A stretch of 64,000 bases of DNA from Eledone cirrhosa (Eukaryota). Location: contig OZ024746.1 of NCBI GenBank assembly GCA_964016885.1, positions 72,416,001 to 72,480,000 on the forward strand, written 5' to 3'. This document shows positions 2,336 to 59,562 of the stretch, one piece after another; positions within the stretch are counted from its first letter, which is position 1, and every line of letters starts with the position of its first letter. Under the pieces are notes generated by a model. That model was not told the origin of the DNA. It saw only the letters and a list, made by a program, of their open reading frames with translations, and made no database searches. The translations under genes and the position numbers were made by a program.

Positions 2336-3618
2336 ACCACGTTTCTTTACCTTTGCAATCTCATCTTGTGGATGAATTTTTGTTTAGCCCCTGGTCAATC
2401 CTGGTCTGGCCAATCTATGATCAATGACGTTCCAACCTTTACCCGTCTTTATAGGCAGACTTAACATACTCCGAACTACAAGTAAAGCAATGCATTGGAG
2501 TTCCTACATATACAACCACAGCATTCATACATTAGTATTGGGTATCTAGATACGGTGGGTCCCTGAGAAACTGCCTAATATGCCCATGCCTTCAGACGAC
2601 ATTACTATGTCCTATCTGTTTCGTGTCGGTAGGGCGTGTTTTGAGGAAGATTCGACTGCTATTTCTAATAGCCAAATCTCCTTCAAAATATCCTAGCTGG
2701 TATCCGTTCTAATCGGGACTGTTTCTCGATAGTTAAAATTTAAGTAGTAGTTGTTTTTTTCTATAATGGAAAGGAGGACAACAACATGTTCAGCTAAACA
2801 TATATGTAATCTAATAGACTCCTATACTGAACATGAGGTATGTGTTGCTCCATTGTCTCGGTGGACAGATTGGCGAAAATGATACTACAAATGAGGGCGA
2901 AAGACATGTGCTGAAATAGCTAGCCCAACTCATGAGGTTCATTTCCAACATGATCGCAGTAATTAGAGAGGTAGATCGCTAAGGGTTCGATGATAAACAT
3001 ATCGGAAAGCAGTCGGTACTTAATCAGCTTATTTTGTTGTTATTGAGAAGAACTATATTGAAAACCTTTCCAGATGTGACAGTCCTGATTTCTATTTTTT
3101 TTTTAAATTAAATTTAGACATAGTATGTCAACTATTATATAACCCAGTGTATTACTCCTTTTATGAGAATGTAGAGAGCGTTTTCATATAGGTGTGGCCA
3201 GAGGCGTACTGGTCATACGAGCATTGAACCAATATCCACTGGTCCGCTGAGCTGGATTAAAAAAAGAACAGTTGAAAAAATGATTGAAATGTAAATGGAA
3301 CGCTTCTTATTTGAGCAGTGAAAACACGCCCCTGACCGTCAATAGTCAACATTGTTTGTCTGTCACCTTAGCTGAACAGTAAAAATACACTTCTAACACT
3401 CAGTAGTCAGCATTCTGTTAGTCTGTATCATCAGAGTTGAACCGGTTTTAAGACTCAGCACCTCTTCGGGTATGGCTGCTATTTCTAGCAAATCGAGTGA
3501 CTTTGTAGATGTTTTCAAGTTGGATTGATAGGCTTGGCTATCTATCCACGAATGAGAGATCGATTGAAATGAGTGGATTTGTGTCTGAAAATGTTTGAAA
3601 TTATATTCATATAATATA

Positions 3619-3648
<30 letters not shown>

Positions 3649-3650
<2 letters not shown>

Positions 3651-4916
3651 CATTATGAAGAGAGAAGAAACATTTAGATATAATTAGTAATAAAATGTAT
3701 CATACCTAAACTGTTCCTAAATTCCTCGACTACGTAGTTTCGTGGCATAAACAAAAACAATATATCAAAGACATAGAGTCCTTGCGAGGTCTGCCGACTT
3801 ATCAAGAGGATACCTCATTTTACTAGTCTCAAGAACGCGTCTACACGACGCGAGAAAGAATCCCAAAAGGCGGAGGGGGAGACAGTCACGCGATATAACG
3901 GTCGAGAAACAGAGCTAAGCCTCTTATAACCACGAAGAAAATACCACGGAGGCGGAGGGGGTATTCACATCGAGGCCGCAGAAGAGGTAGTGAAGAAGGC
4001 GAGAAGTATGAGTAATGGAAGCTTTCCAGTTGTCCCCACACTTCAAAGATTGCTCGACCAGAGGGAGTTATTAATATATTTAGAAACACACAGATACATG
4101 CGGACACACACATATATACATGAATGCATCCGCACCCAACTGTGAGTTAAGGGTGCCAACTTCACCGATGTTGCTCAATGAATGACTGGGACAGACTAAT
4201 TCAGTTTGAACCAGACTGAACCAGTATCAGAGTTAAAAATACATTATGAAGAGAGAAGAAACATTTAGATATAATTAGTAATAAAATGTATCATACCTAA
4301 ACTGTTCCTAAATTCCTCGACTACGTAGTTTCGTGGCATAAACAAAAACAATATATCAAAGACATAGAGTCCTTGCGAGGTCTGCCGACTTATCAAGAGG
4401 ATACCTCATTTTACTAGTCTCAAGAACGCGTCTACACGACGCGAGAAAGAATCCCAAAAGGCGGAGGGGGAGACAGTCACGCGATATAACGGTCGAGAAA
4501 CAGAGCTAAGCCTCTTATAACCACGAAGAAAATACCACGGAGGCGGAGGGGGTATTCACATCGAGGCCGCAGAAGAGGTAGTGAAGAAGGCGAGAAGTAT
4601 GAGTAATGGAAGCTTTCCAGTTGTCCCCACACTTCAAAGATTGCTCGACCAGAGGGAGTTATTAATATATTTAGAAACACACAGATACATGCGGACACAC
4701 ACATATATACATGAATGCATCCGCACCCAACTGTGAGTTAAGGGTGCCAACTTCACCGATGTTGCTCAATGAATGACTGGTTCAAACTGAATTAGTCTGT
4801 CCCAGTCATTCATTGAGCAACATCGGTGAAGTTGGCACCCTTAACTCACAGTTGGGTGCGGATGCATTCATGTATATATGTGTGTGTCCGCATGTATCTG
4901 TGTGTTTCTAAATATA
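3649..4916 (-). mobile_element. Retrozyme/Penelope-terminal-repeat-like element: two 591 bp tandem units plus an inverted partial copy
   Basis: 3649-4189 repeats at +591; 4781-4916 is the reverse complement of about 4075-4210; each unit carries a hammerhead motif; flanked by (TA)n. Confidence 0.8.
3723..3810 (-). ncRNA. Type I hammerhead ribozyme motif, U3-A8 variant (identical copy at 4314-4401)
   Basis: Minus strand: tcctc TTGATAA gtcggca...tgccac GAAA ctacgtag TC gagga. Confidence 0.75.
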
Positions 4917-4920
4917 TATT

Positions 4921-4998
<78 letters not shown>

Positions 4999-5443
4999 GT
5001 ATATTAGATTCTATACTAGATCAATAGAAGGATATATATATATTTACATAGATATGCACGCACATACACACATACACTTACTCACACACACACATGTATG
5101 TATGGTGACAGTGGACTATTTTTCACTGTTGTCCTCTCGTTATAACACAATAACAGGCTGCGACCTGAGAAGCGGATATATAAATTGTTTGTAACTATCT
5201 GCCTTAAGGATAAATGAAAACATAGACATATACACTCTCTGTCGGAGTAATACATAATTAAGAGAGAGGTAGGAAAACATACAGAGCGGGAGCGAGAGGG
5301 AAGCAGAGTAACATAACGGCAAAAGAATTTATTTTTGAAAAATAAGACAAAAGTAAGATAAAAGGACATGCGAAACTAAGGGATTCATATTACAAATGTA
5401 GTGAGTATTTCTTTATTGTACGTATGTGTGCCGGTGTGCGTAT

Positions 5444-5755: not shown

Positions 5756-6122
5756 ATGTGGTGTACATTTATGAAGTATGTCAACGAGCAGAAGTCTGTA
5801 CGTGTGAAGTGTGAAAGAGAGACAGAAAAAGAAAACTAAGACAGCAAGAGAGAAAAAGAATCGTGTAAGTGAATCAAATGCTCTTCCTTGCATAACTTAG
5901 GAGCCGTGTTTTCTTTGGAAAGTTATATACACACCTGAAGTCAGGTTCCGGCTGAAAGGTCAAGTGGAATTTATTAGAAATTAACTATACAAACATATGT
6001 CTAATACAGTGTTTGACTGAGTGGCGACCGGTTATTATGAATTGTCGTCTGCCGAGTCAATGTTAATCACTACTGCTGCTACGGTGGTGGTGGTGGTGGT
6101 GGTGGTCACTTATGATCCTAAT

Positions 6123-6237
6123 ATGTATCGGGAAACATACGTACGTGCTTGTGTGTATATACATATATGCATATATATATATATATATATATATGTATCG
6201 GGAAACATACGTACGTGCTTGTGTGTATATACATATA

Positions 6238-6298
<61 letters not shown>

Positions 6299-6337
6299 CG
6301 GGAAACATACGTACGTGCTTGTGTGTATATACATATA

Positions 6338-6374
<37 letters not shown>

Positions 6375-6559
6375 GGAAACATACGTACGTGCTTGTGTGT
6401 ATATACATATATACATATATGCATATATATATATGTGTGTATCGGGAAACATACGTACGTGCTTGTGTGTATATACATATATACATATATACATATATGC
6501 ATATATATATATGTGTGTATCGGGAAACATACGTACGTGCTTGTGTGTATATACATATA

Positions 6560-6628
<69 letters not shown>

Positions 6629-31886: not shown

Positions 31887-31925
31887 TATATATATATATA
31901 GGAACAATATAGGAACAATATATAT

Positions 31926-33200
31926 AGGAACAATATAAAAATATCCTTCTTTACTACTCCTAACCTAGCAAACATCATAGGAACAACGAACCACAGTAAG
32001 ATCACCAAGACACAGCACCTCGACACAGATGCACCTACACCTGACAATAACTATATCGGCCTTAACAACTCCCTGGCAGCATCCAATAGTGTTGGCAACG
32101 GCATCCGCAGACGCAACCAGCATAACCGCGAAATGACTGGGGAACATGCAGGACATGACGTGCGGAATAACAATCGCACCACCCCGTGTGCTGTGGGTTG
32201 TAATGGTGCTAACGACAGCTGCGGTAGCGTAGGTAACAACGTAGGCAGCAACAATGATAGCCTTACCGTGGGAAATAGACGGAACCGTGACAGAAATTGC
32301 AACTGCCGCGACAGAGGACGCTGCCCCCTTAGAGGATACTGCTTGACTGATAGGGTTATATATAGATGCACTATTACTAGCCACAATAGCGTTAAACATT
32401 ATATAGGGGCTACCTCCGGCCGGTTCAAAATTAGGTTTCGAACACATCTCCACTCTTTTACAAATAGAAAACTAAGGCACTCCACTTCGCTCGCGGACTA
32501 CATCACATCACTAAAGGACTTAAACATCAGCTTCTCCACGCACTGGGAGATTGTCGGCAGGGTTGCACCGTACAACTTCAAGAGGAAATGCGATCTTTGC
32601 CTCATGGAGCTCTACCACATCATAACTGCACCCCCACGAGCTCATCAACAGCAGAGCTGAAACAGATGGGTTAAGGATGAGGAGTGAAACCGTGCACCGG
32701 ATCTCCCTGCAACAAGTCTTAACACCCCGGCGGGCAGGCGCTGCAAAATAACACCCAGGAAACAATCCTTGCATACCCGACCCAGCCTCAAACGACTCAG
32801 AAAACAGATGCGGCAAAAAAAACTCTCAAATTAAGCGTTGATTACATGCGTATCGACAATGGTAAGGTTGTAACCTCATCTCGTAGCAGATAAAAAAAAT
32901 TTGTCCGGGAAAGACTGCCCTAACACCGGCCAGAGTTACCTCCCTTGACCTGGTGCAAAATCAAAACAAGCCATTTTTGCGAGCAATGAACCTTGACGTG
33001 GATTTAACCCCAAAAACTCTTTCCGAGCAATGTAAGGAACACTTTTGATTATTTATGCCCTTGAGAAGCCCAACTGGGCGAAACGTACGTAGGTGCTGTT
33101 TTAAATAAACATGTTTTAACGGTCTATTCTCCGATTTCTTACTTTCCCACGTGCTTACGCTCTGCTAACTCTCTAGCCCACTAAATATTAACACTTCGAA
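31926..33200 (+). mobile_element. 5'-truncated Penelope-like element: RT-thumb end, linker, GIY-YIG endonuclease, 3' UTR with hammerhead (33057-33096)
   Basis: Open frame RNNIKISFFTTPNLANII...CNCRDRGRCPLRGYCLTDRVIYRC...YIGATSGRFKIRFRTHLHSF...STSLADYI..LK...WEIV...CDLCLME; frameshift to LINSRAE; downstream ccc TTGAGAA gccca ac tgggc GAAA cgtacg TA gg. Confidence 0.9.
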
Positions 33201-43670: not shown

Positions 43671-44014
43671 GCGCGTGTGTGTATATATATATGTATATAT
43701 GTGTGTGTGCGTGTGTGTGTTTTGTTTAGTTCATTTGTTTTATTCAATCAGTCATTCGTGTAATTGCCATATCTCAAGTATGATATAGAAATCCAGAACT
43801 CTTTCTTATAGTTGTTGTTGTCTTTGTTGTATTTATTGTTGTTGTTGTTGTTGATGTCTTTTTTTTTGGGGGGGGGGGGGGGGGGTAATCGACTTATCCC
43901 TCCTCCCCCTAAATTGCTGGTCTTGTGCCAATGTTAGAAAGAAACCACCACCACCACCACAACAACAACAACAACAACAATTCAGTACAACAACAATAAC
44001 ACCGACAGCCTCAA

Positions 44015-45715
44015 TGTAAACACTGATGGCGGTGGCAACAGCAACAACAAACAAAACAACAACACCAGCAACAACAGCAAGAACGACAACACCAACAACA
44101 AGAGCAACGGAGGCGCCACCTTTGCAGCGGCAGCAGCGAAAACAAAGCGCTTCTTCAATGTAGATATTAGCGATAAGGAACAACATTTGGCCCAGGCGTG
44201 GAGGCGAATTAAACGAGAGATGTCCTGGGCAAACCGGACCATCCCGGACGGGGCAATAGCGGCCATGCAAAGGAGGGCGGTGTACTTTCGATGCATTTCA
44301 GTGCAAACACGCAAAGTGGAACTCGCCAGCCAAGCAGAGGTCGAGGCTGCTTTAAAGTGCATCGGAAGTGACATCGAGTACAAAGCAAGGGCCAAGCAGT
44401 TCGGTACCATCTCGGTACTGTTCAAAACCGAGGCCCTTGCTATTAAGCACTCGGTGACTCCTGCAGAACGGAGCGCATTATCATGCACCCGTCCTACGTG
44501 GGCAAAAGGACAGTAAAGGTCCGCGTTCCCAGGATCCCACCAGGAATGAACATATGGTGGCTCCTGGGATGCGTCATCGAGGAGGGGGCAGACACTACCC
44601 TCCTGCATATCAAAAGGACAGAAAGAGAAGACTGGTCCGGAATGAATTTGGAGATTCTTCTCCAGATGAAACCAGAGGACATCAACAACATACCGGATTT
44701 TTCCCGCCTGCAGGACGGGACAACAATCCAATTAATCACTGAGATAAGAAGGCCGCACTGCTTCGTCTGCAGAAAAGCAACGCATCTACAAGCCTTCTGC
44801 CCTTAGCTCAAAAATGCAGGGGGTCGCAAACCTCCTTTGTTGCCAACGCCAGTGTCAGCATGGAAAGCTGCACCACCACCAAAAACAACACCAACAATGA
44901 CACGGGTAGCCCCACGAACATCAAAAACAGTCGGACCACCACCAGCACCGAAACCTGTCCAAGGGTAAATCGAGGAAAGCTCTCCCACTCCCCCTACCCC
45001 TCCAATTATACACATAGACAAAACAATAAATGCACACACAGACACAGTCACAGATACACTCACAGCCACAGACCCTTTGTCTTCCAGCAGTAAAGATGAA
45101 GGAAAGCCCAAAAGTACCAAAAAACAAGAGAAAACTCACCAAAAAAAAGCCCCAACAAAACAAAAACATACACAACAAAAAATACAGACACCACTAACGC
45201 AAACAGCTCCCCAATAACATCAACACCAACATCAACACCACCCCCACAATCCCCGAAACGCAAACAACCTAAACAAACACAAAAACATAAACACAGACAC
45301 CTGAAATTGCAGACACCACACCTACAACAAACACAGACATACCCGAAACAATACCACCAAAACCATCACCACCACAGTCACCAAAACGAAAACAAATAAA
45401 ACCACACCAACAAAACATTAAAAACTTCGTGCTTGTCAGAAGGGCCAACGATAAATTGATGACCCTCTTAGCACGAAGCGAGGACATCCAAACAGAGGGG
45501 GAGATCTTTGAATTGAACACATTTTGCGTGCCAGAAGATTTGTTTCTGGTGCGAATGTCGCTCGATTCCTACAAAGAAATTTGAAAGAGCTTTCCTCAAG
45601 ACGTGGGAACCCCGAACGTGAAACCCACATCGGGACTTTTAAAGGGGTTCCCAAAAGAAACCCTACCAACCATGGAGGTCGAACCACCCGACCTTCACAA
45701 GACCCCAGGAGGTAA
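44015..45715 (+). pseudogene. ORF1 (nucleic-acid-binding, zinc knuckle), frameshifted
   Basis: TFAAAAA; RAKQFGTISVLFK; CFVCRKATHLQAFC = CX2CX4HX4C; followed by a Pro/Thr/Lys-rich region; boundaries approximate. Confidence 0.75.
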
Positions 45716-45748
45716 GTAAACCTTCCCTCTCTCTTTTAGCTTGCCAAC

Positions 45749-48706
45749 ATGGCCATATTAAGAGTAGGAAGTTTAAATGTTCGCGGCCTGGGGTCACCCT
45801 GGAAGCAGAGTCGCCTGCTCAACGACCTCAGGTCTCTGGAAATGGATGTGATTGCCGTCAGCGAGACCAGAATTTCCGACACGCGCGCACTAGCCCACAT
45901 TTTCGACGACTATCAGATCTTCGCATCTGTTAGCAGGTCGGGAATGGGAGGTGAGGTGGCAGTGCAGTTTAGGAAAGGTCTGGATCTCGAGGTAAGGTCG
46001 ATCTTCCGAGACCCAGACGGTAAGTCGGTGGTCCTAGATGTGAGCAGTAGCCAAGGTGATGCTTTTAGACTGCTGGCCGTCTACGCCCCCCTGGGACCGG
46101 ACGACCGGAATTCTTTAGGCGCCTGGAAATCTTTCTGGGTACGTCTCGCCCTCTACTGTTAGCGGGGCACTGGAACGTCATCTTTGACGCACGCTGGGAT
46201 TGTGTGGGAGTAGCTGATAGGAGCGGGAGGTGCAAAAGCCTCAAACACCTAATCCGCCAGTTCCAACTGTCTGACAGGTATCGACTAGATTTACCCAATG
46301 CGCCAGTGTGAGCGTAGCCCAACCGCATAGGGTCATCTAGATCGTATATAGACAAGATCTCCATTAGGAAAATAGATAGAAATAATGTAGGGTGCCCAAT
46401 TTTTAAAACGGTCGCCTATTCAAATCACAAATTTGTGATCTGTATAGTCGACCTAGATAAAACGCGTAGGTTGGGACCGGGTTACTGGAAGCTGAACATG
46501 TCATTTCCAGCATGTAAGGCTTACAGGGACCGAGTCAACAATTTAGTTAAGCAAAAGTTGACGGGGGGGGGGGTTCATCAACAACAGATGGGGGGGGGGG
46601 GGCTCTCAAAAGAGAGATTAGAATAACTTCGATAGAGTTCAGCAAAGAACTAGCGTTAGAGAGAAATAGAAAGGAGCGGGAGCTGGTAGATAAGTTAGAC
46701 AAGGCTATTTGTAGTGGCATTGCAACTGACGTGCTAGCGGCGAGAATGGCATTAGACCATTTCTTCAATCCGAAACACGAAGGTTGCATTTTCAGAGCTA
46801 AGGCGCGTGCGCTGAGAAACGAGGGAACCAAAGCTATCCGATGGGCCTGCGTAGCGGAAGCGCAGCGTTGTAATAAAACCACAATTCGGTCTTTGGCGGA
46901 CCGAGACGGACACGAGATAAGCGATTCCAAGCGGATGTGTGAGGCCTTTCGCTAGCACTTTTCTCGGTTGTTCGGGGAGAGTGGCGAGTCAGAGAGAGTA
47001 GCGGATTTCAGTCCCTACCTTGACGGCTTGCCGCGCATCTCGACGGTCGACGCTGAGCGCTGCGAAAGGTCGATTACTTCAGCCGAAATTCAGGACGCCC
47101 TTGTCGGCTGCATGAGGCGCAAGTCACCCGGTTTGGATGACCTGCCCTACGAGCTTTACGTAAATATGCTAGACTTGTTCTCCGATCTCCTCGAAGCACT
47201 CTACTGCAACTGGCAATAGAATGGGAGTATTCCCAGTTCTGTGAGCGGGAGAGTGGTGACGCTGATAAGGAAAGACAAGAACAAGAGGGATACAATAGAC
47301 AACTTCAGGCTCATAACTCTGCTCAAAACAGAGTTTAAGATTTTGGCCAAGGTGTTAGCAAAGAGATTGGCGCTTGTCGTCGAGGATTTGGTTGGGGAGG
47401 CGCAAACTTGTGCAATACCAGCTAGGTCCATACACGACAATCTCCACCTCATGCGATACATCATAGAGAGGGTAGGGTGTAAACCTGGCTTCGGCGGGGC
47501 ACTGATTAATTTAGATCAATCGAAAGCATTCGATAGGCTCGACCATCGGTATCTGGAGTTTGTATGATAGCTTGGTTCGGACCAGACCTCTAGGTGGAAA
47601 AGAATTGGGATGAAGTAACGAGCAGGGTAGCCAGTCTCACCCAAAAATGGGCTGGGAGGAAGATATCACTGAAAGGTCGCGCGGAGGTGGTGAATGCGTA
47701 CATCGCGTCCGTCATCTACTACCGCCTGACCGTCATGCCTTTCCCCCGTCCGCGCCTCGTCAAGTTGGAACGGCTCCTCTTCAAATTCTTGTGGAGAGGA
47801 CAAGTTCCGTTGGTGAGGTGGTCCATCTGCTGCCAGCACCCTCTACGCGGAGGGCTGAGCATGCCGTGGCTAATGATGCGCAGACATGCGCTGAGGCTGC
47901 GACATCTCCAGATATTCTGTCTAAACGGTGAACAGGTGTGGTCGCCGTTTATCTGACGGGCCTTTCTGCAGCTCGTTTCTTTGACTGAGCTGCAGTCCTG
48001 GGTCAAGAAGAGACCGAGACTGGGTGACTGGCACCTGGAATGTTGCCAGGCACTCACTGCCCTCTACCAAGCGAGCAATGCAATCGGTGCAACTTCCACT
48101 CTCGAGTTCTATAGAGGATTAGTGGTGGGCAAGTGCGATAACGCACTCGGGGGAGTTTTGGGCCTCGACGAAGTCAAACTGACCAGTCTGTTCCGGAGAA
48201 CTTTCGAGCCGGGGACGATGGACAATTTCCAGAAATCCCTCGCTTGGCAGTTCATACCGGGGGGAACTGCCGGTTCGGCATAAACTCTACAGGCAAGATG
48301 CGCACAGAGCGAGGAAACCGTTCTGCACGCACTTGTCCAATGTCTGTGCATTACTGACTTGTGGAGTTATGTCGAACAGCTACTGTCGCGTGTGGAACGG
48401 ATCCGGTTATCGGCCGAGTCCATAGTGAAGATCGACCTGACGCCTTCCTTTGGTCAGGAAGAGCAGGCAATTTTCCTCTGTCTTGTGGCAGTTGCGAAAG
48501 AGGTTATATGGTGGACCAGATTGGAAGGACTGAAGACAGACTATTTTCTCTTCGGCCAATCCCTCATCAACTTCTTCACGTTTCACTCGGAAAGGAATGT
48601 GAGGATGGAGAGAGAAGTGCTGCCCCCTAATACATTTGCTAAAAGGTGGATGAATGTGGCGAGAATGGCCCGTGTGAATGGGCCTACTCTGACCATGCTC
48701 CTATAG
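45749..48706 (+). pseudogene. ORF2 APE endonuclease + reverse transcriptase, multiple stops/frameshifts, internal deletion
   Basis: SLNVRGL, VSET, AVYAP, GYWKLN, KSPGLDDLPYELY, NFRLITLLKTEFKILAKVLAKRL, LDQSKAFDRLDHRYL, SLKGRAEVVN, GGLSMP. Confidence 0.93.
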
Positions 48707-49860: not shown

Positions 49861-50950
49861 TCCTTGAATCTCAGTCATTGATGTTGGTTAACTGGAAAGT
49901 CCGTTGGATTGAATATCAAGCCACTACCTGCAGCCTCAGATATTCAGGACGTATCGGAGGGTTCTTGCCGTTCCAAGCAAGCATGCCTTTTGAAGCGTTC
50001 CAAAAAGCGTGAAGGGGCCGATTTTCTTTAACCATCCCTGGAAACCTTTGGAGATAGTCCCCAGTGCGCCTATGACAATCGGGATCACTTTGACTTCATG
50101 GCAGTTCCAAATCCTTTTCACCTCCCACTTTAGGTCCTGGTATCGGTTAATTTTCTCCCTCTCCTTCTCTTGCACTCTCGTGTCGAACGGGCAGGCCACA
50201 TCCACAATCAGGCACGATCTTTTTTCTTTGTCCACAACCACCAGGTCAGGTCTATTGTGTTCCAGTTTTTTGTCCGTCTGTATCCTAAAATCCCACAGCA
50301 CCTTCACCTGACTGTTCTCCATCACCGCCTCTGGCCTATGCTCATACCATTTCTCAGAATGTGGTAGATTGTTTACTTTGCACAGGTGCCAGTGGATCAC
50401 CCTGCCCATCACATCGTGTCTCCAGCCCTTATAGTGGGTCTGGGCTAGGTGTTTACACTCGGACACAATGTGAGCCACAGTCTCCTCTCTCTCTCCACAG
50501 ATCCTGCACAGTGGGCTAGCCTCCTCCTTGTAGATATGGTGCTTCAACCACTTCGTTTTGAGGGCCTGCTCCTGCGCAGCCATTAGCATTCCTTCTGTAG
50601 CCTTTTTGAGGTCTCCTCTTCTCAACCAGTTCCATGTCTGTGGATCTCTAAATTCAGTTTTCTCAAAGAAGGTACTATGAAGGGATTTTCCCTTAAGGCT
50701 GCTCTTCCTCCTTGATGTTATTTCCTCCTTGGGTATCCCCTGGCCTACTCTCCCCTCCTTCAGTACAGCTCTGAGCATTGGCTCCTTACTATAGGTCACG
50801 TATTTGTATAGGTTGTTTTTCTCCATCTGAACACAGTCCTCTATGCTGATAAGACCTCTTCCACCCTCAGATCTCCTTAGGTAGAGTCTATCGACATCAC
50901 TCCTCTTGTGGAACATGTTGTAGATAGTCAATAGCTTCCTAGTCTTCCTA
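49861..50950 (-). mobile_element. 5'-truncated R4/Dong-clade retrotransposon: post-RT region, CCHC finger, restriction-like endonuclease (open frame to stop at 49936)
   Basis: RLYLRRSEGGRGL; AAQEQAL; CRICGEREETVAHIVSEC; RHD; LWDFRIQTD..HNRPDLVVVD...IVDVACP...EKINRY; PIVIGALG; (TAA)n-type tracts on both flanks. Confidence 0.93.
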
Positions 50951-50997
<47 letters not shown>

Positions 50998-51195
50998 GGC
51001 GGTGGATTGGCAGTATCGTTAGCGGGTCGGACACCATGCTTTGATGTATAGAGTTACGGCCCTTACCATTCTGAGTTCAAATCCCGCCGAGGTTAACTTT
51101 GCCTTTCATCCTTACGGGTTCTATAAAATGAAGTACCAGTAATACACTGTGATAATTGCTGGCCTTGTGCCAAAAGTAGCAACAATTATTACTAT
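50998..51195 (+). mobile_element. tRNA-derived SINE, main family, full length
   Basis: Consensus match. Confidence 0.92.
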
Positions 51196-51867: not shown

Positions 51868-53420
51868 GGTGATGGTCATCGTCCCGGCGATAATGATGGA
51901 GATGATGATGGTGATTGTAGTCGTGGTGATGGTGATGGTAGGGATGGTGATGGTGGTGATAGTGGTGATGGTGGTGATGGTGATGGTAGGGATGGTGATG
52001 GTGGTGATGGTGGTGATGGGGATGGTGGTGATGGTGGTGATGGTGGTGATGGGGATGGTGGTGATGGTGGTGATGGTGGTGATGGGGATGGTGGTGATGG
52101 TGGTGATGGTGATGGTGGTGATAGGGATGGTGGTGATGGTGGTGATGGTGGTGATGGGGATGGTGGTGATGGTGGTGATGGTGGTGATGGTGATGGTAGG
52201 GATGGTGATGGTGGTGATGGTGGTGATGGTGGTGATGGTGATGGTAGGGATGGTGATGGTGGTGATGGTGGTGATGGTGGTGATGGTGATGGTAGGGATG
52301 GTGATGGTGGTGATGGTGGTGATGGGGATGGTGGTGATGGTGGTGATGGTGGTGATGGGGATGGTGGTGATGGTGGTGATGGTGGTGATGGGGATGGTGG
52401 TGATGGTAGGGATGGTGATGGTGGTGATAGGGATGGTGGTGATGGTGGTGATGGTGGTGATGGTGATGGTAGGGATGGTGATGGTGGTGATAGGGATGGT
52501 GGTGATGGTGGTGATGGGGATGGTGGTGATGGTGGTGATGGGGATGGTGGTGATGGTGGTGATGGTGGTGATGGGGATGGTGGTGATGGTAGGGATGGTG
52601 ATGGTGGTGATAGGGATGGTGGTGATGGTGGTGATGGTGGTGATGGTGATGGTAGGGATGGTGATGGTGGTGATGGTGGTGATGGTGGTGATGGTGATGG
52701 TAGGGATGGTGATGGTGGTGATGGTGGTGATGGTGGTGATGGTGATGGTAGGGATGGTGATGGTGGTGATGGTGGTGATGGGGATGGTGGTGATGGTGGT
52801 GATGGTGGTGATGGGGATGGTGGTGATGGTGGTGATGGTGGTGATGGTGATGGTGGTGATGGTGGTGATGGTGGTGATGGTGGTGATGGGGATGGTGGTG
52901 ATGGTGGTGATTGGGATGGTGATGGTGGTGGTAGAGATGGTGGTGGTGGTGGGGATGGCGGTGATGGGGATGGTAATGGTTATGGTGGTGGTGATGGTGG
53001 TGGTAGGGATGGTGATGGTGGTGGTGATGGTGGTGGTAGGGATGGTGATGGTAGGGATGTTGATGGTTACGGTGGTGGTGATGGTGATGGTGGTGATGGG
53101 GATGGTGGTGATGGTTGTGATGGTGGTGATAGGGATGGTGATGGTGGTGTTGATAAGGATGGTGGTGATGATGGTGATGGTGATGGTGGTGGTGGTGATG
53201 GTGGTGGTGGTGATGGTGATGGTGGTGATAGGGATGGTGATGGTGGCGGTGGTGGTGGTGATGGGAATGGTGGTGATGGTGATGGTGATGGTGGTGATAG
53301 GGGTGATGATGGTGATGGTGGTGATAGGAATGGTGATGGTGGGGATGGTGATGGTGGCGGTGGTGGTGGTGATGGGGATGGTGGCGATAGTGATGATGGG
53401 GGTGGGGATGGTGATGGTGG
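51868..53420. repeat. Compound (GAT/GGT)n triplet satellite
   Basis: Direct inspection; produces the spurious 536 aa M/V/G ORF. Confidence 0.95.
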
Positions 53421-54320
53421 TTAGAATGAAATGGTGTAGTGTAGTGTGGTGTGGTGTAGTGTGGTGTCGTGTGGTGTAGAGTGGTGTGGTTTGGTGTAGT
53501 ATAGTGTGGTGTGGTGTGGTGTAGTATAGTGTGGTGTGGTGTGGTGTAGTGTGGTGTAGTGTGGTGTAGTGTGGTGTAGTGTGGTGTGGTGTAGTGTGGT
53601 ATAGTGTGGTGTAGTGTGGTGTGGTGTAGTGTGGTCTCGCGTGGTGTAGTGTGGTGTGCTGTGGTGGTTAGAATGGAATGGTGTAGTGTGGTGTAGTGTG
53701 GTGTAGTATAGTGTGGTGTGGTGTAGTGTGGTGTGGTGTAGTGTAGTATAGTGTGGTGTGGTGTAGTATAGTGTGGTGTAGTGTGGTATGGTGTAGTATA
53801 GTGTGGTGTGGTGTAGTATAGTGTGGTGTAGTGTGGTGTGGTGTAGTATAGTGTGGTGTGGTGTAGTATAGTGTGGTGTGGCGTGGTGTGGTGAGGTGTA
53901 GTGTGGTGTGGTGTAGTGTGGTGTGGTGTAGTGTAGCGTGGTGTGGTGGTTAGAATGGAATGGTGTTGTGTGGTGTAGTGTAGTGTAGTATAGCGTGGTG
54001 TAGTGTGGTGTGGTGTAGTGTAGTATAGTATGATGTAGTGTGGTGTGTTGTGGTGTAATATAGTGTGGTGTGGTGTAGTATAGTGTTGTGTAGTATAGTG
54101 TAGTGGGGTGTAGTGCGGTGTGGTGTAGTGTGGTCTCGTGTGGTGTAGTGTGGTGTGGTGGTTAGAATGGAATGGTATAGTGTGGTGCAGTGTGGTGTAG
54201 TATAGTGTGCTGTGGTGTGGTGTGGTGTAGTGTGGTGTTGTGTGGTCTCGGGTGGTGTAGTATAGTGTGGTGTGGTGTGGTGTTTAGAATGGAATGGTGT
54301 GGAGTGGTATGGTAGTAGGT
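53421..54320. repeat. (GTGTA/GTGTG)n pentamer satellite punctuated by ttagaatggaatgg
   Basis: The punctuation motif recurs at about 53421, 53668, 53950, 54162 and 54284. Confidence 0.92.
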
Positions 54321-57524: not shown

Positions 57525-59562
57525 ACAACCACCATTATTACAACCATCACCAGTATTACTACCATCACCAGTACTACTACCATCACTAGTATTACAACCA
57601 TCACCAGTATTACTACCATCACCAGTATTACAACCATCACCAGTATTACAACCATCACCAGTATTACAACCATCACCAGTATTACTACCATCACCAGTAT
57701 TACTACCATCACCATTATTACTACCATCACCAGTATTGCTACCATTACCAGTATTACAACCATCACCAGTATTACTACCATCACCAGTATTACAACCATC
57801 ACCAGTATTACTACCATCACCAGTATTACAACCATCACCAGTATTACAACCATCACCAGTACTACTACCATCACCAGTATTACAACCATCACCAGTATTA
57901 CAACCATCACCAGTATTACAACCATCACCAGTATTACTACCATCACCAGTATTACAACCATCACCAGTATTACTACCATCACCAGTATTACTACCATCAC
58001 CAGTACTACTACCATCACCAGTACTACTACCATCACCAGTATTACTACCATCACCAGTATTACTACCATCACCAGTATTACTACCATCACCAGTATTACT
58101 ACCATCACCAGTATTACTACCATCACCAGTACTACTACCATCACCAGTATTACTACCATCACCAGTACTACTACCATCACCAGTACTACTACCATCACCA
58201 GTATTACAACCATCACCAGTATTACAACCATCACCAGTATTACTACCATCACCAGTATTACTACCATCACCAGTATTACAACCATCACCAGTATTACTAC
58301 CATCACCAGTATTACAACCATCACCAGTATTACTACCATCACCAGTATTACAACCATCACCAGTATTACAACCATCACCAGTATTACTACCATCACCAGT
58401 ATTACTACCATCACCAGTATTACTACCATCACCAGTATTACAACCATCACCAGTATTACTACCATCACCAGTATTACAACCATCACCAGTATTACAACCA
58501 TCACCAGTATTACTACCATCACCAGTATTACTACCATCACCAGTATTACTACCATCACCAGTATTACTACCATCACCAGTATTACTACCATCACCAGTAC
58601 TACTACCATCACCAGTATTACTACCATCACCAGTATTACTACCATCACCAGTATTACTACCATCACCAGTATTACTACCATCACCAGTACTACTACCATC
58701 ACCAGTATTACTACCATCACCAGTACTACTACCATCACCAGTATTACTACCATCACCAGTATTACTACCATCACCAGTATTACTACCATCACCAGTATTA
58801 CTACCATCACCAGTACTACTACCATCACCAGTATTACAACCATCACCAGTATTACTACCATCACCAGTATTACTACCATCACCAGTATTACAACCATCAC
58901 CAGTATTACTACCATCACCAGTATTACAACCATCACCAGTATTACTACCATCACCAGTATTACTACCATCACCAGTATTACTACCATCACCAGTATTACT
59001 ACCATCACCAGTATTACAACCATCACCAGTATTACTACCATCACCAGTATTACTACCATCACCAGTATTACAACCATCACCAGTATTACAACCATCACCA
59101 GTATTACTACCATCACCAGTATTACTACCATCACCAGTATTACAACCATCACCAGTATTACTACCATCACCAGTATTACTACCATCACCAGTATTACTAC
59201 CATCACCAGTATTACTACCATAACCAGTACTACTACCATCACCAGTATTACTACCATCACCAGTATTACTACCATCACCAGTATTACTACCATAACCAGT
59301 ACTACTACCATCACCAGTATTACTACCATCACCAGTATTACAACCATCACCAGTATTACAACCATCACCAGTATTACTACCATAACCAGTACTACTACCA
59401 TCACCAGTATTACTACCATCACCAGTATTACAACCATCACCAGTATTACTACCATCACCAGTATTACTACCATCACCAGTATTACTACCATAACCAGTAT
59501 TACTACCATCACCAGTATTACTACCATCACCAGTATTACTACCATCACCAGTATTACTACCA
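57525..59562. repeat. 18 bp minisatellite accatcaccagta(t/c)tac(t/a), about 113 copies
   Basis: Direct inspection; three main unit variants. Confidence 0.97.

Follow-up and report, generated by a model that had tools for sequence, protein, structure and literature searches.

The window, a 64,000-nt stretch of the 3.0 Gb genome of Eledone cirrhosa (C6:72416001-72480000), carries at 3648-4917 an insertion in which a 591-nt non-coding repeat runs head-to-tail for 1.9 units and is joined to a 141-bp head-to-head arm. Positions within the unit (q) are counted along the reverse complement of 3649-4239, the 591 nt of the ribozyme-bearing strand that form unit 1 (3649-4239, minus strand, non-coding). 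Unit 2 (4240-4780, minus strand) is 5′-truncated, beginning at q51 and so without its first 50 nt, and over its length is identical to unit 1, the two together forming a long arm of 1,133 nt (3648-4780, minus strand). The direct repeat at an offset of 591 is exact across 542 bp with no mismatches (3648-4189 against 4239-4780), such that the spacing and identity described in an earlier, sequence-only reading of this DNA are borne out, whereas the two units that it described amount to 1.9. The short arm (4777-4917, 141 nt, sense on the plus strand) is the exact reverse complement of 4074-4214 (q26-166), making the inverted copy 141 bp and not the 136 bp given previously, and it meets the long arm head-to-head in a 4-nt microhomology overlap (CTGG/CCAG, 4777-4780).

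The short arm terminates at a 3′ end site termed A (TTTCTAAATATAT; 4905-4917, plus strand), which is the right terminus of the insertion, while the left terminus is a 3′ end site termed B (CATAATGTAT; 3648-3657, minus strand). An internal, unused copy of site A is present in unit 1 (4074-4086, minus strand), the 166 nt between sites B and A (4074-4239, minus strand) constituting a "tail". The left edge is assigned as the B end and the inverted terminus as the A end because 3′ ends throughout the family fall at A or B (see below), and as such the inverted piece is the second fixed 3′ end of the element rather than an oddity of its 5′ end. As had been noticed at the outset, (TA)n flanks the insertion on both sides. 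The left (TA)n target, which has a TTT interruption, includes a candidate 17-nt target-site duplication (3634-3650, plus strand) that overlaps the element end by 3 nt, and the same 17-mer recurs at 4912-4928 in the right (TA)n target, which is followed by (TG)29 (4912-4995, plus strand). The longest frame in the insertion is 86 aa from stop to stop and 75 aa from an ATG, in keeping with the previous view that there is no credible ORF. The ends are not LTRs, no tRNA-derived head was found in 3000-5200, and the two 1-kb bins at the insertion have a G+C of 0.375 and 0.417.

One type I hammerhead is predicted per unit on the minus strand, at 3723-3810 and 4314-4401, with the predicted cut after q512, that is between 3728 and 3727 in the first and between 4319 and 4318 in the second. 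Both the single minus-strand hammerhead in each unit and the predicted 591-nt monomer between the two cuts (3728-4318, minus strand) had been proposed before and follow from the sequence. Helix I is UCCUC/GAGGA (5 bp) and the core reads UUGAUAA...GAAA...UC, with the covariant UUGAUAA (U3:A8) in place of CUGAUGA, while helix II opens with a G-C pair and a bulged C and extends to 57 nt. Helix III (ACUACGUAGU) is self-complementary, again as proposed, forming 2 bp as a monomer with two copies predicted to pair in a 10-bp duplex of -12.9 kcal/mol. The geometry is not that of the canonical hammerhead (6-bp helix I, 4-bp helix II and a loop 1-loop 2 contact) but that of a variant known from Penelope-like elements (PLEs), in which U3-A8 covariation, a bulge at the start of helix II, a short helix I and a palindromic helix III have been described (PMC4209133). 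Judged by its U3:A8 core and palindromic helix III, the predicted ribozyme is of the PLE kind of type I hammerhead. Among the best 150 of 156 Rfam matches there was no hammerhead family, these being microsatellite-driven matches to miRNAs.

The predicted ribozyme fold lies 2.4 kcal/mol above the free minimum of a 91-nt fragment, which counts against cleavage as proposed here. PLE-type minimal hammerheads are reported to cleave poorly in vitro, a related U3:A8 case having low activity (PMC4209133), and eight of nine Xenopus retrozyme dimers were reported without cleavage (10.64898/2026.07.22.740005). The 591-nt monomer has a predicted circular fold of -177 kcal/mol (z -8.1 against 40 dinucleotide shuffles) compared to -132 kcal/mol for the antisense. 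Across the family, U3, U4, G5 and A6 are invariant in 77/77 loci and lie outside the motif used for selection, A8 and A9 have one variant each, and helix II has 25 variants, its fold being retained while the sequence drifts. No indel was found at the cut site in 78 loci, a biased sample. On sequence grounds, an ACCUC within the bulge of helix II (3783-3792, minus strand) might rival helix I in pairing with GAGG, which could turn the ribozyme off.

The insertion belongs to a large dispersed family, a 20-nt ribozyme motif having 7,592 exact matches in the genome and its reversed control none. Searching with the unit yielded 1,057 candidates, the 40 that were scored being 99-100% identical, which upholds the initial description of the element as retrozyme-like and young. 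End motifs joined to (TA)n numbered 2,736 for one end and around 2,000 for the other (1,016 forward, the reverse count of 1,888 being inflated by double listing), from which the size of the family is roughly estimated at 3,500 loci. Arrays are short, dispersed and 5′-truncated, reaching up to about 4.5 units, and about half have an inverted arm. The tandem joint is also present in a contig from another public run, and the artefact of assembly against which the sequence-only reading had cautioned, suggesting a genome copy count as one check, is not what is seen. Candidate target-site duplications occur at 19/77 loci against a shuffled mean of 11 and maximum of 18, a marginal excess. Divergence between subfamilies reaches about 20%, and the retention of the ribozyme core and head-to-head layout by older subfamilies at 80-87% identity (L172, L163 and L154:1516-1830) indicates that the family is long-lived. 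At one locus (L160) a second copy of the entire head-to-head insertion, with identical joints, lies 2,554 bp away. A hot spot of 5′ truncation is apparent at q288-297 (3943-3952 in the window), where 7/40 one-armed copies stop beside C-rich runs.

The ends of these copies were mapped in two sets of loci. The first consisted of the window and its 38 best-matching loci, selected by similarity to it, and the second of 40 of the first roughly 47 motif-bearing loci along C1, chosen by an exact cut-spanning motif, a choice that favours clean junctions. Sites A (q165-168) and B (q587-q1) each run into (TA)n, B lying 80 nt past the predicted cut and A 166 nt beyond B. In the first set all 57 visible 3′ ends are at A or B with the 5′ ends scattered, and of the two-armed loci the 18 showing both ends are without exception A+B, a 19th (L050) having run off the stretch, while the one-armed loci comprise 10 A and 10 B. 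In the second set 18/20 two-armed loci are A+B, including one with a worn A end (L169) and one with a complex centre (L183), with neither A+A nor B+B being found; in the two exceptions (L156 and L174) one arm ends elsewhere, which counts against the proposal set out below. The one-armed loci of this set are 9 A, 10 B and 1 too divergent to class. Lists of end motifs covering 0-91 Mb of C1 (88 B, 69 A) gave 39/39 head-to-head pairs within 6 kb as A+B where 49% would be expected (p 1e-12), a count that overlaps the second set and so is not independent of it, with a p value that assumes independent ends. None of the 40 one-armed copies in the two sets starts at the ribozyme cut, which also counts against the proposal. 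The tail of PLEs is described as being present at one end only (PMC8557442; PMC3846280), and the A/B pattern is this same feature, here 166 nt long and nearly exceptionless.

The way in which the two arms are paired bears on their origin. After exclusion of L050, L156, L174, L183 and the duplicate in L160, 35 two-armed loci were compared, in 21 of which the arms are nested while in 14 they are non-nested with 20-267 nt missing, the two arms at L169 and L184 having no sequence in common. Fold-back of a single cDNA would nest the arms, and the 14 non-nested pairs cannot as they stand derive from it. In 9/35 pairs both arms are longer than one unit. Joints have a 1-5 nt overlap in 26/38 pairs, and the 5′ ends of the two arms are closer on the circle than in shuffled pairs (mean 114 nt, p 0.0045), being within 35 nt in 11/38 pairs where 4.8 are expected (p 0.006). 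Some of these close 5′ ends are separated by one or two full circuits of the unit, which counts against the proposal. The non-nested arms, close 5′ ends and short joints fit a single template primed by both target strands, and the PLE protein of anole is reported to nick and extend both strands from two internal start sites that define the tail, with a dimer predicted (PMC11167929).

That one template served each insertion is suggested by the sharing of haplotypes between the copies of a locus. With arm ends and gap margins masked, 29 alleles occurring in at least four of 79 loci gave 151 cases of fixation in every copy at a locus against 5 of mixture, with 74 fixed against 3 mixed for alleles spanning both arms. 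The arm-to-arm distance within a locus is 0.53% (26/4,931 columns, 16 loci) compared to 3.0% between loci. Without masking, 58 lineage sites were mixed, to which alignments running past the joints contributed many, as were 95 private sites, the latter being read as later mutation. In addition, 24 private alleles found at a single sampled locus are present in all copies of that locus. A new allele arises in one unit, so its fixation in all units and both arms means that one unit was copied repeatedly. A circle would supply such copying of one unit into many, with gene conversion, or repeated jumps along a linear monomer template, as rivals, and the homogeneity of haplotypes across the family indirectly supports a circular or monomer-derived template, as has been proposed for both PLEs (PMC4209133) and retrozymes (PMC7229834).

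Taken together, the window holds a recent retrozyme insertion, which was probably mobilised in trans by a PLE, itself probably of Neptune type, and probably from a 591-nt RNA circle with both nicked target strands primed. That the retrozyme is a non-autonomous element mobilised by PLEs is very likely; passage through a monomer and circle is likely, and priming of two strands at two sites only slightly less so. As the anatomy suggests, the hammerheads, probably acting as a dimer, would cut a multimeric transcript into 591-nt monomers, which may then be ligated into circles, in line with the haplotype patterns and with known retrozymes. The RT-endonuclease of the PLE would nick (TA)n and the freed 3′ ends would prime at the TA-rich B or A, the two positions at which the ends are observed. 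Repeated circuits of the template by the RT would generate the 5′-truncated arrays of up to about 4.5 units. Where both strands prime, one at A and one at B on the same template, the cDNAs would be joined head-to-head via microhomology; the A+B rule and shared haplotype are observed, and it is the order of events that is conjectural. In the window, priming at B would have given the 1,133-nt arm and priming at A the 141-nt arm. A more specific form of this scheme, in which PLE integration is two-handed, one RT-endonuclease dimer gripping one RNA circle at the two fixed start sites, with A primed from one target strand and B from the other, is put forward tentatively and is somewhat doubtful.

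A PLE could also have copied linear RNA, either a multimer left uncleaved or a monomer with template jumping, there being no circle and the homogeneity being due to young masters or gene conversion. In keeping with this, cut sites are found intact within copies, slow cleavage is described for PLE-type hammerheads (PMC4209133), and the anole PLE is reported to work in vitro without it (PMC11167929). However, the fixation of the 29 lineage alleles across units (151 against 5) needs a step from one unit to many, linear templates can only shorten while both arms often exceed the unit, no indel is seen at the cut in the biased sample of 78 loci, and the predicted circular fold is strong and specific to the sense strand, all of which make a purely linear route unlikely. 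More improbable is the formation of the inverted arm by fold-back (self-priming) of the cDNA or from an antisense template, with the endonuclease cutting the second end at the other site. Self-priming (PMC3846280) and resolution of the tail by the endonuclease (PMC8557442) have been proposed, as has an antisense template for rotifer PLEs, and the nested arms in 21/35 pairs, the perfectly symmetric centre of L185 and the 5′ ends lying nearer than chance would accord with such a route. Against this, 14/35 pairs are without the 20-267 nt that fold-back requires and the arms of L169 and L184 share nothing, such that a later deletion at the centre of the palindrome would have to account for all 14 non-nested pairs.

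Growth of a satellite in place from a solo pLTR by unequal crossing-over, or an artefact of assembly, is scarcely credible. Local tandem growth has been proposed (10.64898/2026.07.22.740005) and the local duplication at L160 speaks for it, but it is already contradicted by the pattern of the ends, the 3′ ones being fixed, the 5′ ones scattered and the joints different across loci dispersed in their thousands. The shortness of the arrays and the recurrence of the tandem joint in the contig of another public run also speak against it.

In its workings the element resembles a non-LTR retrozyme, and in its manner of insertion an EN+ PLE. With the non-LTR retrozymes of animals it shares non-coding head-to-tail repeats with one type I hammerhead per unit, a highly self-paired monomer, a helix III of the dimer type and co-occurrence with PLEs (PMC7229834; 10.64898/2026.07.22.740005). 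The monomer of 591 nt compares to 150-450 bp in one description (PMC7229834) and 51-972 bp in another (10.64898/2026.07.22.740005). The family has a hammerhead in at least two consecutive tandem units, no ORF or LTR, dispersed multicopy occurrence and low G+C, and as such falls within the working definition of a non-LTR retrozyme in the 2026 preprint (10.64898/2026.07.22.740005), while departing from the canonical hammerhead of the 2020 description (PMC7229834). It differs from these retrozymes in its PLE-type U3:A8 ribozyme, 57-nt helix II, short dispersed arrays and two fixed 3′ ends, and the word "inverted" is absent from the main text of the 2020 paper (PMC7229834).

With EN+ PLEs of the Neptune clade the element has in common 5′-truncated partial tandems, an inverted 5′-truncated copy, a tail at one end and (TA)n targets (PMC8557442; PMC3846280; PMC4209133), together with a minimal hammerhead with the U3-A8 covariant and a bulge opening helix II (PMC4209133). 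The insertion has several features of PLE mobilisation, namely a 5′-truncated tandem with an inverted copy, a one-end tail and a microsatellite or AT-rich target. Since it carries no RT and GIY-YIG ORF, it is not an autonomous PLE; it further differs from the EN+ PLEs described in having a tail of 166 nt where theirs is 30-40 nt, and no homology to a host pLTR among the PLE loci compared. MRC1 and similar non-autonomous Chlamys elements are likewise derivatives of PLEs forming multicopy head-to-tail insertions, but unlike the present family they are described as having 3′ sequence in common with autonomous partners, and their clade as being without canonical hammerheads (PMC8557442). For the Poseidon element PAc of the green anole, two internal start sites setting the tail, nicking and extension of both target strands and AT-rich targets are reported as here, although its sites are adjacent, non-homologous to the target and without strand difference (PMC11167929), as opposed to 166 nt apart, TA-homologous and one per end. 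Priming in the present family appears to use TA homology, and this contrast, like the length of the tail, counts against the proposal. Twin priming of LINE-1 resembles the present element in its head-to-head inversion, short microhomology and priming by both target strands, but the second primer acts at variable internal sites on a linear RNA, whereas here both sites are fixed and the arms can exceed the unit.

The genome contains at least 10,595 GIY-YIG candidates, the long PLE frames having an RT, a CxxxxCxxC linker and a GIY-YIG domain in the Neptune layout, for which this linker has been described (PMC8557442). One young and abundant Neptune-type family, named for the locus L129 (G000:C1:145868500-145877500), is a possible helper, at somewhat less than even chances. 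The hammerheads in its pLTRs have the core UUGAAAA (U3:A8), its targets are (TA)n, its cut-to-B spacing is 82 nt compared to 80 nt in the retrozyme, and its second end lies 66 nt further on (TTTCTAATATA vs TTTCTAAATATA). Head-to-head arms with an end in view among 36 loci examined, in a search biased to loci with an A end, were A+B in 8 cases and A with a third site in 1, with no A+A. Of the copies scored, 53/70 are stop-free over 630 aa at 98-100% identity. Most scored copies of this family have a 775-aa RT-endonuclease frame after a T-rich tract, separate from an upstream frame, possibly reflecting a programmed frameshift or an intron, while L131 of another family has a single 1,096-aa frame.

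No similarity was detected between the unit and the L129 end by local alignment (p 0.68). A partner was also sought by BLASTN of the unit against 50 PLE loci of the at least 10,595 candidates, returning only a neighbouring retrozyme copy and simple repeats, and by a pattern that kept helix I and the core but shortened helix II, which gave two matches, one a deleted copy of the retrozyme family. Among nine other PLE 3′ regions, local alignment scores were raised for L147 (62 vs 38 +/- 5) and L141 (41 vs 31 +/- 4), which are put down to TG/TA tracts from BLAST positions alone. Since the unit aligns with none of the PLEs examined, the assignment of a helper rests on geometry and not on descent, which counts against the proposal. 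L129 is no more than a candidate, given this result and the U3:A8 ribozymes of other host families. By eye, U3:A8 hammerhead-like motifs are apparent in the 3′ regions of L141, L146 and L147, the core in L146 being UUGAUAA as in the retrozyme, while L132 and L139 have the core CUGAAGA. At L164:2020-2146 a retrozyme 5′ end meets the B end of a tiny head-to-head L129-type insertion with no (TA)n between, a junction that may reflect a template jump or a nested insertion and was dropped as proof of a helper since insertion into an older copy explains it equally.

The tail, inversions, circles and help from PLEs are already in print as descriptions or proposals. The origin of the tandem and inverted insertions of PLEs and of their one-sided tails has been called unresolved (PMC8557442), and the case for animal retrozymes using PLE enzymes has so far been built on relatedness and on their occurring together (PMC7229834; 10.64898/2026.07.22.740005). 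In the main texts searched, largely of open papers, neither a tally of A+B pairing nor a test of haplotypes was found for retrozymes, an earlier description elsewhere, as in the PLE reviews of 2005-2006, being possible. Were the two-handed reaction true, a single rule would explain the tandem arrays, head-to-head inversions and one-sided tail of PLEs. The family, whose dated products number in the thousands and whose intact helper would reside in the same genome, would then show directly, at the level of the genome, that a Neptune PLE copies animal retrozymes from circles although the two have geometry and not sequence in common. The family offers a protein-free substrate of 591 nt whose two start sites are mapped and strictly paired, a haplotype signature pointing to the monomer step and an intact candidate helper, which brings such questions within reach of a test using one RNA, one protein and a (TA)n oligonucleotide. 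The family is in addition an active mutagen of the host genome at thousands of sites.

Parts of the unit are present in the data of 17 other organisms, and 8/24 of the runs were examined. No RNA data set was listed as containing it, which speaks neither for nor against expression. The unit is at a depth near 200,000 in run X2 and at about 3-37, as the commonest variant, in X1, X5, X6, X8 and X11, three of which have it in one contig of about unit length, while in X9 it is at a depth of 100-500 with a loose end matching the host L129 PLE. Raw reads of X22, from the same organism as X9, gave no match in the roughly 1/100 of reads sampled, a sample too thin to count as absence. The occurrences in other organisms are read as cross-contamination and horizontal transfer is not claimed. 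The low-depth unit in X1, X5, X6, X8, X9 and X11 is probably carry-over, and the family could serve as a marker of cross-contamination.

Elsewhere in the window, the sequence at 25359-25691 matches the L132/L135 PLE family at its 3′ end (89%). The frame at 31902-32660 (plus strand), for which there was no Pfam match at E 0.1, is presumably akin to the endonuclease end of a PLE, judging by its motif. Two broken remnants are taken to be LINE-like, one at 44000-48706 (plus strand) with endonuclease and RT pieces, presumably L1/Tx1-like, and one at 49936-51018 (minus strand) with what we take to be a restriction-like endonuclease end of R4-like type. Long simple tandem arrays are found at 57530-59562 (an 18-bp unit x113), at 51894-54283 (GGT/GAT-rich) and at 6121-6600 (70-100-bp units with variable TA).
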